In this document: positions 10,489 to 10,523 of the stretch, one piece after another
Position numbering within the stretch: the first letter of the stretch is position 1
How the letters are laid out: every line of letters starts with the position of its first letter
IMG/VR virus record: IMGVR_UViG_648276647_000008
DNA length: 35,321 bases
Strand: one strand, 5' to 3'
Source of the DNA: a virus
Lineage: Duplodnaviria > Heunggongvirae > Uroviricota > Caudoviricetes
The notes under the pieces: model-generated
Told to the model about the DNA's origin: nothing
Databases searched by the model: none
The model's input: the letters and a program-made list of their open reading frames with translations, nothing else
Program-made: the position numbers and the translations under genes

Positions 10489-10523
10489 CTCGTAGAATCT
10501 GGTGTGTTAACCGATTCTACGAG
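10489..10523 (-). promoter_or_regulatory. 11-bp perfect inverted repeat (CTCGTAGAATC-13 nt-GATTCTACGAG) in the leader of the pmgC-like gene
   Basis: Read directly from the sequence. On the minus-strand mRNA the 3' arm ends in ...ACGAGG, overlapping the likely GAGG RBS 5-6 nt before the ATG. Confidence 0.5.

Follow-up and report, generated by a model that had tools for sequence, protein, structure and literature searches.

A proposed fold-back translational insulator around the late promoter LPsit of P1-type phage-plasmids

A perfect inverted repeat that abuts the start of pmgC, the first gene of a phage tail operon, is probably a fold-back translational insulator built around the late promoter LPsit, of the type known from genes e and I-TevI of phage T4. 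We found the repeat in a stretch of viral DNA of 35,321 nucleotides (IMG/VR record IMGVR_UViG_648276647_000008; here "the window"), which is a P1-type phage-plasmid (Punavirus) and matches P1, P7, SJ46, RCS47, and many Escherichia coli and Salmonella plasmids at 97 to 100% across pmgC and tub. PmgC is an essential tail adaptor of the virion (PMC9024508). The observations that carry this reading are the anatomy of the repeat, its predicted folds, the energies needed to open the RBS, and the pattern of conservation among relatives.

We propose that transcripts coming from an upstream accessory cassette or from an upstream sigma-70 site would contain both arms of the repeat. In such read-through RNA, the arms would pair into an 11-bp hairpin (up to ~17 bp when outer and inner pairs are counted) that would bury the pmgC Shine-Dalgarno (SD) sequence, and in some relatives the AUG, so that ribosomes could not load. 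In the late phase, Lpa would activate LPsit, and RNA polymerase, using the −10 hexamer inside the upstream arm, would start in the loop; the resulting late mRNA, whose leader of 25 nt would not include the upstream arm, would have an open RBS. On read-through transcripts, pmgC RNA left untranslated would be open to decay and to termination by Rho, and this polarity would also insulate the later genes of the operon, from tub, pmgB, and sit onward. The polarity step is a conjecture, and a block of pmgC translation alone would not silence the downstream genes.

The late promoter LPsit within the inverted repeat

On the plus strand, the repeat at positions 10489-10523 reads CTCGTAGAATC-TGGTGTGTTAACC-GATTCTACGAG, that is, two perfect 11-nt arms (10489-10499 and 10513-10523) around a 13-nt loop that contains GTTAAC, and it ends 6 nt from the pmgC ATG (10482, minus strand). 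If two mismatches are allowed, each arm grows to 17 nt (10483-10499 and 10513-10529). Both the coordinates and the letters agree with a preliminary description of the element, which was also correct in stating that the 3′ arm overlaps the likely RBS, as the SD shares three bases with the arm, and that the element adjoins the first gene of the sit operon, as the annotated LPsit of P1 and P7 is followed first by pmgC in an operon ordered pmgC-tub-pmgB-sit-pmgA-bplA-16. What that description missed is the promoter itself: LPsit is annotated exactly here in the GenBank records of P1 (AF234172) and P7 (AF503408). In the direction of transcription, the order on the minus strand is AAATGACAA CTCG TAGAAT C GGTTAACACACCA GATTCTACGAG GTTTCA ATG (Table 1).

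Table 1. Features of the window around LPsit
Feature	Positions	Strand	Remarks
sit (1140 aa)	8316..4894	−	Follows pmgC, tub, and pmgB
pmgC (188 aa)	9916..10482	−	98.9% identical to P1 PmgC
pmgC Shine-Dalgarno, GAGG	10488..10491	−	5 nt before ATG; read from the sequence
Downstream (3′) arm	10489..10499	−	GATTCTACGAG; its last three bases (GAG) are the first three of the SD
Loop	10500..10512	−	GGTTAACACACCA; site of the expected late start
Upstream (5′) arm	10513..10523	−	CTCGTAGAATC; spacer CTCG (4 nt), −10 hexamer, and one base
LPsit −10 hexamer, TAGAAT	10514..10519	−	P1/P7 annotation and late-promoter PWM
LPsit −22 box, AAATGACAA	10524..10532	−	Lpa-dependent element; P1/P7 annotation
Intergenic region, cassette to LPsit	10533..10636	−	P1/P7 homology ends at ~10535-10544, just upstream of the −22 box
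Sigma-70-like site, TTAACA-16-TAGACT	10570..10543	−	Consensus match only
Weak terminator-like hairpin	10639..10654	−	End of the 355-aa ORF; 6-bp stem, tail GAATTTTATC
Upstream accessory cassette	10637..12595	−	Three ORFs (355, 158, and 116 aa), co-oriented with pmgC

P1 has 11 late promoters, which consist of a −10 hexamer and a conserved element near −22 that is Lpa-bound or Lpa-dependent (PMC10695390). Their alignment gives AAGTGACTT-N4-TAnnnT. With a PWM derived from 9 of the 11, the LPsit site of the window (at 10532) had a score of 16.3; other late promoters in the window and in phage JK004 scored 16.3 to 22.9. Database annotation and the PWM match together point to this site as LPsit. 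Its −10 hexamer makes up positions 5 to 10 of the 11-nt upstream arm. Since TAGAAT lies within that arm, an LPsit late mRNA would lack the arm whatever its exact start, and the hairpin could therefore act only on transcripts that enter from upstream. From promoter geometry, we infer a late start at about 10507 (A10507), in the loop and 7 nt past the −10 hexamer, which gives the leader of 25 nt. The mirrored TAGAAT on the plus strand was also considered as an antisense promoter and rejected on reading the sequence, which has no −35 element, TG extension, or −22 box upstream of it.

Predicted structures differ sharply between the two kinds of transcript. Read-through RNA spanning 10470-10535 folds with an MFE of −21.2 kcal/mol, compared to −7.9 ± 2.3 kcal/mol for shuffled sequences (z = −5.9; 0 of 200 shuffles as stable), whereas RNA beginning at 10507 is without significant structure (−3.2 kcal/mol; z = +0.2). 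In the longer RNA, the core stem gains three inner pairs and an outer helix of UGA (10527-10529) with UCA (10483-10485). We calculated the opening energy as the ensemble cost of making positions −13 to +6 around the AUG single stranded. For the window, this cost is 14.0 kcal/mol on the read-through transcript and 6.8 kcal/mol on the late transcript; the corresponding values are 18.0 and 6.8 kcal/mol in P1 and 15.6 to 20.1 and 4.9 to 6.0 kcal/mol in the clade of phage JK004. Two features of regulation of the T4 gene e type are thus found at LPsit: by prediction, a stable helix covers the SD and/or start codon on upstream-initiated RNA, and a late promoter, identified by annotation and PWM, would produce transcripts that, from the expected start, miss the 5′ strand of the helix.

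By its presence alone, the repeat is only mildly unusual and constitutes weak evidence. In dinucleotide shuffles of the window, perfect 11-bp repeats with loops of 3 to 20 nt occurred at a mean of 0.18 per shuffle, and 14% of the shuffles held at least one. We regard the LPsit repeat as nonrandom because it is placed on both the promoter and the RBS, because its fold has a z score of −5.9, and because it is conserved.

Conservation of the hairpin and alternative readings

Within the P1 clade, we compared 81 sequences (80 IMG/VR loci and the window). None of the 22 sites in the two arms is polymorphic, compared to 5 of 13 in the loop, 2 of 6 in the spacer between SD and ATG, and 2 of 9 in the −22 box (arms versus flanks, Fisher P = 0.003). 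Over pmgC, 73 of 564 positions vary, as do 55 of its 188 third codon positions. Eight bases of the downstream arm, GATTCTAC, are under no other known constraint, yet they are invariant in all 81 sequences. Separately, an E. coli contig (GCA_900449145; L117, ~2453-2501) carries the cassette and hairpin of the window together with an early 1-nt deletion in pmgC (cgacaatactcg versus cgacaattactcg), because of which the gene is called from a downstream TTG; judging from its sequence, this copy of pmgC is probably defective.

A second clade, made up of Cronobacter phage JK004, Salmonella plasmids, and contigs of Klebsiella aerogenes and Enterobacter asburiae, has PmgC proteins that are 74 to 78% identical. 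Its sequence, ATGACAA CTCG TAAAAT CGG-N8-CCG ATTTTACGAG GTTGGC ATG, contains a stem of 13 perfect pairs (CTCGTAAAATCGG-N8-CCGATTTTACGAG) in which a G-to-A change in the −10 hexamer is matched by a C-to-U change in the opposite arm, turning a G:C pair into A:U. The loops (CTGAAGAT, TTGAAGAT, or AAGATGAT) and the spacer between SD and ATG are unrelated to those of the window. The outer helix extends to the AUG in this clade, and the folds have z scores of −5.0 to −6.5. Furthermore, in two haplotypes (L115 and L124, with GATTTTGCGAG), a U:A pair becomes U.G, which keeps the RNA helix and breaks the DNA palindrome; U.G counts as a pair only in the sense RNA.

Across 16 distinct haplotypes, all 176 of 176 cells are paired, compared to 27 to 43% when the register is slid by 1 to 3 columns, and RNAalifold recovered the same stem. 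One of the variable pairs is compensatory (GC in 10 haplotypes and AU in 6) and one is a wobble (UA in 14 and UG in 2). The remaining 9 of 11 stem pairs are invariant, and the covariation amounts to few independent events. In addition, the arms are partly constrained anyway by the −10 hexamer and the SD, and matched changes in a DNA quasipalindrome can arise by template switching without selection on RNA. With these limits, the comparative pattern supports, at the level of sequence, selection on the hairpin, and the natural compensatory and wobble variants are indirect evidence that pairing of the arms may affect translation.

In a third type, that of "Candidatus Pantoea alvi" (L017/L118, 68%; L120, 64%), the −10 hexamer lies opposite the SD in another register of the MAFFT alignment, and TAGAAT/UUCUGA versus TAAAAT/UUUUGA repeats the switch from G:C to A:U. 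The pmgC SD and its spacing are identical in all three clades. Folds of L017 and L120 are no better than those of shuffled sequences (z = −1.2 and −0.7, respectively), and this type, counted as a third clade, would lend the hairpin weak support. A good terminator precedes the promoter in the L017 type, so that the need for insulation is less obvious there. A scan of metagenomes for intermediate lineages returned only P1-clade, JK004-type, and hairpin-less types, and no further members of the Pantoea alvi type.

It is well established that template-switch mutation corrects quasipalindromes in E. coli, and such a process could keep identical the arms of a functionless palindrome, one arm being set by the promoter and part of the other by the SD. 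A perfect repeat of this length in 14% of shuffled windows would suit such an origin, as would the nine invariant pairs, which carry no information on covariation. We nonetheless think it unlikely, given that GATTCTAC stays invariant in the 81 sequences while the adjoining loop and spacer vary, that these bases are preserved at 74 to 78% protein identity, that palindrome correction does not yield the U.G wobble variants, and that the same architecture occurs independently at other promoters of JK004 and D6. The palindrome over the promoter is perfect, and the symmetric half-site changes of the JK004 clade also fit an operator that coevolves with its protein. The preliminary description had offered an operator for a dimeric regulator; such a protein would repress LPsit by covering the −10 hexamer and the start. 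Several observations make this very improbable. The half-site has no second copy in the window or in the 94.8-kb P1 genome with one mismatch allowed, the distance between half-sites is 13 nt in one clade and 12 nt in the other, haplotypes L115 and L124 break the DNA symmetry while keeping the RNA pair as U.G, and the pairing register of L017 and L120 is different. To our knowledge, there is also no candidate for a regulator of a single late promoter. The idea of a translational-control hairpin, likewise raised in the preliminary description, was right in kind, as the SD is indeed buried; it is not expected to hold for the late mRNA, since the LPsit −10 hexamer lies inside the repeat. A hairpin on the late mRNA itself, at which melting or a factor (such as Com for Mu mom) would gate pmgC translation, would need a start upstream of 10523 and hence a promoter other than the annotated LPsit, yet the −22 and −10 elements of LPsit are kept in the JK004 clade (ACATGACAA CTCG TAAAAT) and the site in the window has a PWM score of 16.3. 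We find it scarcely credible.

The remaining alternatives concern the cassette rather than pmgC. With its ~17 to 20 bp and internal loops, the extended structure has the size of small RNase III substrates and stands right at the boundary where a lysogen-type cassette meets a late operon, so it could be an RNA processing or 3′-end element of the cassette (an RNase III site or a barrier to 3′ exonucleases) that separates or stabilizes cassette mRNA. The hairpin is, however, conserved with pmgC while the cassettes differ among relatives, and the base-for-base overlap of its arms with the −10 hexamer and the SD would not be needed, which leaves such an element quite unlikely. Nor does a U-tract follow the stem in any clade (the sequence there is GGUUUCA, GGUUGGC, or GGUCACU), a point that bears equally on the suggestion of a U-tract-less terminator for the upstream cassette. 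That suggestion is not supported: the stem is 45% G+C (5 of 11 pairs are G:C), the loop is 13 nt long, GGUUUCAAUG follows with no U-tract, a terminator scan did not call the LPsit repeat, and the repeat travels with pmgC and not with the upstream cassettes; an intrinsic (Rho-independent) terminator is disfavored by the same features. We rejected an attC-like recombination site for cassette exchange, the repeat being single, on the conserved side, and with no partner at the c4 side.

Genomic context and other late promoters

A fold-back insulator at LPsit presupposes transcription from upstream. The cassette in the window has a G+C content of 33 to 37%, compared to about 47% around it, and sits where P1 has simABC and P7 has upf50.0/50.5; across relatives, the slot from c4 to pmgC is a hot spot for cassettes. 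Its proteins belong to PHROGs of unknown function (7086, 3429, and 15014), PADLOC returned zero matches to them, and the C terminus of the 355-aa protein has a match to SH3_3 that is sub-threshold only. The cassette is co-oriented with pmgC and is the presumed source of read-through transcripts, whose existence and amount, like their effect on translation, we infer. Its last ORF ends 154 nt upstream, and a weak terminator-like hairpin and a sigma-70-like site lie between. This hairpin may already limit read-through and is unlikely to stop all of it; transcripts from the sigma-70-like site would carry the entire LPsit hairpin. In the P1 record, predicted promoters P1-P3pmgC are annotated upstream of pmgC.

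A whole-window scan with Rfam 15 at the gathering score placed no family at 10483-10532; its matches were C4, an isrK-like RNA, sok, and two tRNAs. In the immI region, on the plus strand, the isrK-family match (12828-12906; 58 bits) lies directly upstream of the C4 antisense RNA (12952-13039; 77 bits). The sok match, to an antitoxin RNA of the hok/sok type (16863-17037, plus strand; 86 bits), follows repL, where P1 annotates rlfA/rlfB, and points to another variable accessory module.

Relatives that lack the hairpin differ in context. In D6 and in relatives from Serratia, Pantoea, Citrobacter, Enterobacter, Photobacterium, and Vibrio vulnificus, whose PmgC proteins are 39 to 62% identical, we found neither the late promoter nor the hairpin before pmgC (identity of PmgC mostly 62% or less). 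In these promoter-less relatives, pmgC comes directly after bplB within a single operon, with the gene order 22-21-pmgG-bplB-pmgC-tub and a gap of 0 to 55 nt between bplB and pmgC. In the P1 lineage, the tail operon is split, and the immunity/lytic-replicon block and a variable cassette lie between bplB/pmgF and pmgC. The cassettes are simABC in P1, upf50.0/50.5 in P7, a YfjT-family pair in JK004, and the three ORFs of unknown function in the window, and all four are co-oriented with pmgC. The same promoter-hairpin module adjoins at least five different upstream contexts. On these sequences, presence and absence of the hairpin appear to track the need for insulation. As a separate observation, bplB and pmgC are parted by a higBA toxin-antitoxin pair in a plasmid of Vibrio sp. 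THAF191d (L011, 1440-1500), a distant relative. A G+C-rich hairpin, GCCGCTC-AACTTG-GAGCGGC, takes in the pmgC SD there, and 1 nt separates its end from the ATG.

We then asked how the arrangement is distributed over late promoters by calculating the duplex energy between the promoter segment that is absent from the late transcript and the RBS, with a permutation test of cognate versus noncognate pairs. In P1, LPsit reaches −20.8 kcal/mol, LPpac −11.7 kcal/mol, LPdar and LP26 −8.3 kcal/mol, and the rest −6.5 kcal/mol or weaker. Over the 11 P1 late promoters the result is not significant (P = 0.22), as noncognate pairs reach −14 kcal/mol, a range that takes in LPpac and LPdar; we therefore rejected complementarity of promoter and RBS as a P1-wide rule. 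LPsit, the sole clear outlier among the 11, may be a special case in P1, and this bears out the earlier remark that similar elements are missing in front of the other structural operons.

In JK004, the RBS pairs best with its own promoter at 4 of 8 late promoters (permutation P = 0.004), with duplex energies of −25.4 kcal/mol for LPsit, −16.7 for the R promoter, −15.0 for LPpac, and −14.1 for LP26. The R promoter has an independent perfect 13-bp repeat, CATAAAATCAGAC-N12-GTCTGATTTTATG; the −10 hexamer lies within it, and it runs up to the SD (GGAG). The P1 late-promoter PWM fails on D6, where the −22 motif is different; a motif that we read by eye, AAATCACAnACT-N3-(−10), is common to the promoters of genes 23, prt, R, 26, 7, lydA, and orf16 and of pmgB. 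In D6 (L129, ~45453-45540, minus strand), tub and pmgB are separated by a repA-like gene, which splits the tail operon, and the −10/+1 segment of the pmgB promoter, UCCUCUGGAAA, pairs with UUUUCGGAGGA at the SD in an 11-bp stem that ranks first of 8. The D6 R promoter also ranks first; the genome-wide test for D6 shows a trend only (P = 0.12).

The leader of gene 23, downstream of the co-oriented par operon, may form a similar fold-back, as read from its sequence. At 23118-23190 (minus strand) of the window, CTCTTCC (23165-23171), right after the −10 hexamer of LP23, is complementary to GGAAGAG (23125-23131) in the SD region. The stem is CUCUUCC/GGAAGAG in P1 and UCGUCCU/AGGACAA at identical positions in JK004 (18601-18670), with four double changes, one break, and two unchanged pairs.

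Taken as an exploratory survey, these cases suggest that promoters placed within hairpins recur among relatives of P1. It is possible, though we hold the idea only tentatively and think it somewhat doubtful, that a general design, evolved repeatedly, operates in phage-plasmids of the P1 family: where a late operon restarts after co-oriented non-late or foreign genes, the first gene would have an RBS complementary to the sequence from −22 to the start, and promoter and anti-RBS arm would form a portable insulator. Examples would be pmgC in P1 and JK004, pmgB in D6, R in JK004 and D6, and gene 23 after par. If true, accessory and defense cassettes could be accepted beside essential structural operons without leaky expression of virion genes from the prophage.

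Some further features were noted at the tail-fiber genes. The sequence before R in the JK004 record (L127, 3727-3785, minus strand) is AAGCGACTTCCCATAAAAT-cagacggcagatcttca-GTCTGATTTTATGGAG-ccccaa-ATG, and P1's own LPs (window, ~2224-2242) is without a repeat of the JK004 R type. At 2244-2268 of the window, at the junction of gene 16 and the R-S-U tail-fiber genes, a G+C-rich inverted repeat (TCACCCCGCCC / GGACGGGGTGA) lies upstream of the −22 element of LPs and overlaps its upstream half; it is terminator-like, without a clear T-run.

Significance and comparison with known systems

Our search of the literature, with the P1 genome paper (PMC523184) outside its scope, returned no earlier description of the LPsit hairpin, which in P1 is apparently undescribed so far; the kind of regulation is already known from T4. 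P1 is a classic model phage, a tool for transduction and as a phagemid, and the prototype for many phage-plasmids bearing resistance and accessory cassettes. If an insulator acts at LPsit, it would explain how a hot spot of cassette exchange (sim, upf50, and others) can lie beside an essential tail operon without deregulating it. It would also offer engineers a compact promoter-plus-insulator module of ~50 bp, and fusions to "LPsit" fragments would be expected to differ depending on whether both arms were included. More broadly, the logic of lytic T4 would be extended to temperate plasmid prophages with unrelated late transcription.

[quoted passage not shown] As at LPsit, where it is predicted, a hairpin on upstream-initiated RNA hides the SD or AUG and late transcripts lack its 5′ strand; and the T4 genes so regulated are late genes embedded in earlier transcription units, a position that pmgC would share. 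The phage families and the late machineries, however, are unrelated: T4 uses gp55 and gp33 with TATAAATA, whereas P1 uses sigma-70, Lpa, and the −22 box. The unwanted transcripts come from early lytic promoters in T4 and, as we propose for LPsit, from accessory genes that a plasmid prophage expresses. Unlike in T4, the −10 hexamer of LPsit itself is predicted to pair with the RBS region.

For IS10/Tn10, fold-back inhibition of transposase translation on read-in transcripts was reportedly described by Davis, Simons, and Kleckner in 1985. There, too, the element's own promoter starts inside the structure, the extra 5′ segment of transcripts from outside pairs with the RBS, and the purpose is protection from fortuitous outside transcription. 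IS10 differs in being a transposon, with no phage late operon and no activator-dependent promoter. The mom gene of phage Mu resembles pmgC in that the RBS of a late gene is held in a stem-loop. In Mu, however, it is the functional mRNA that carries the hairpin, and Com opens it, whereas at LPsit the proposed relief needs no factor and depends on which promoter is used.
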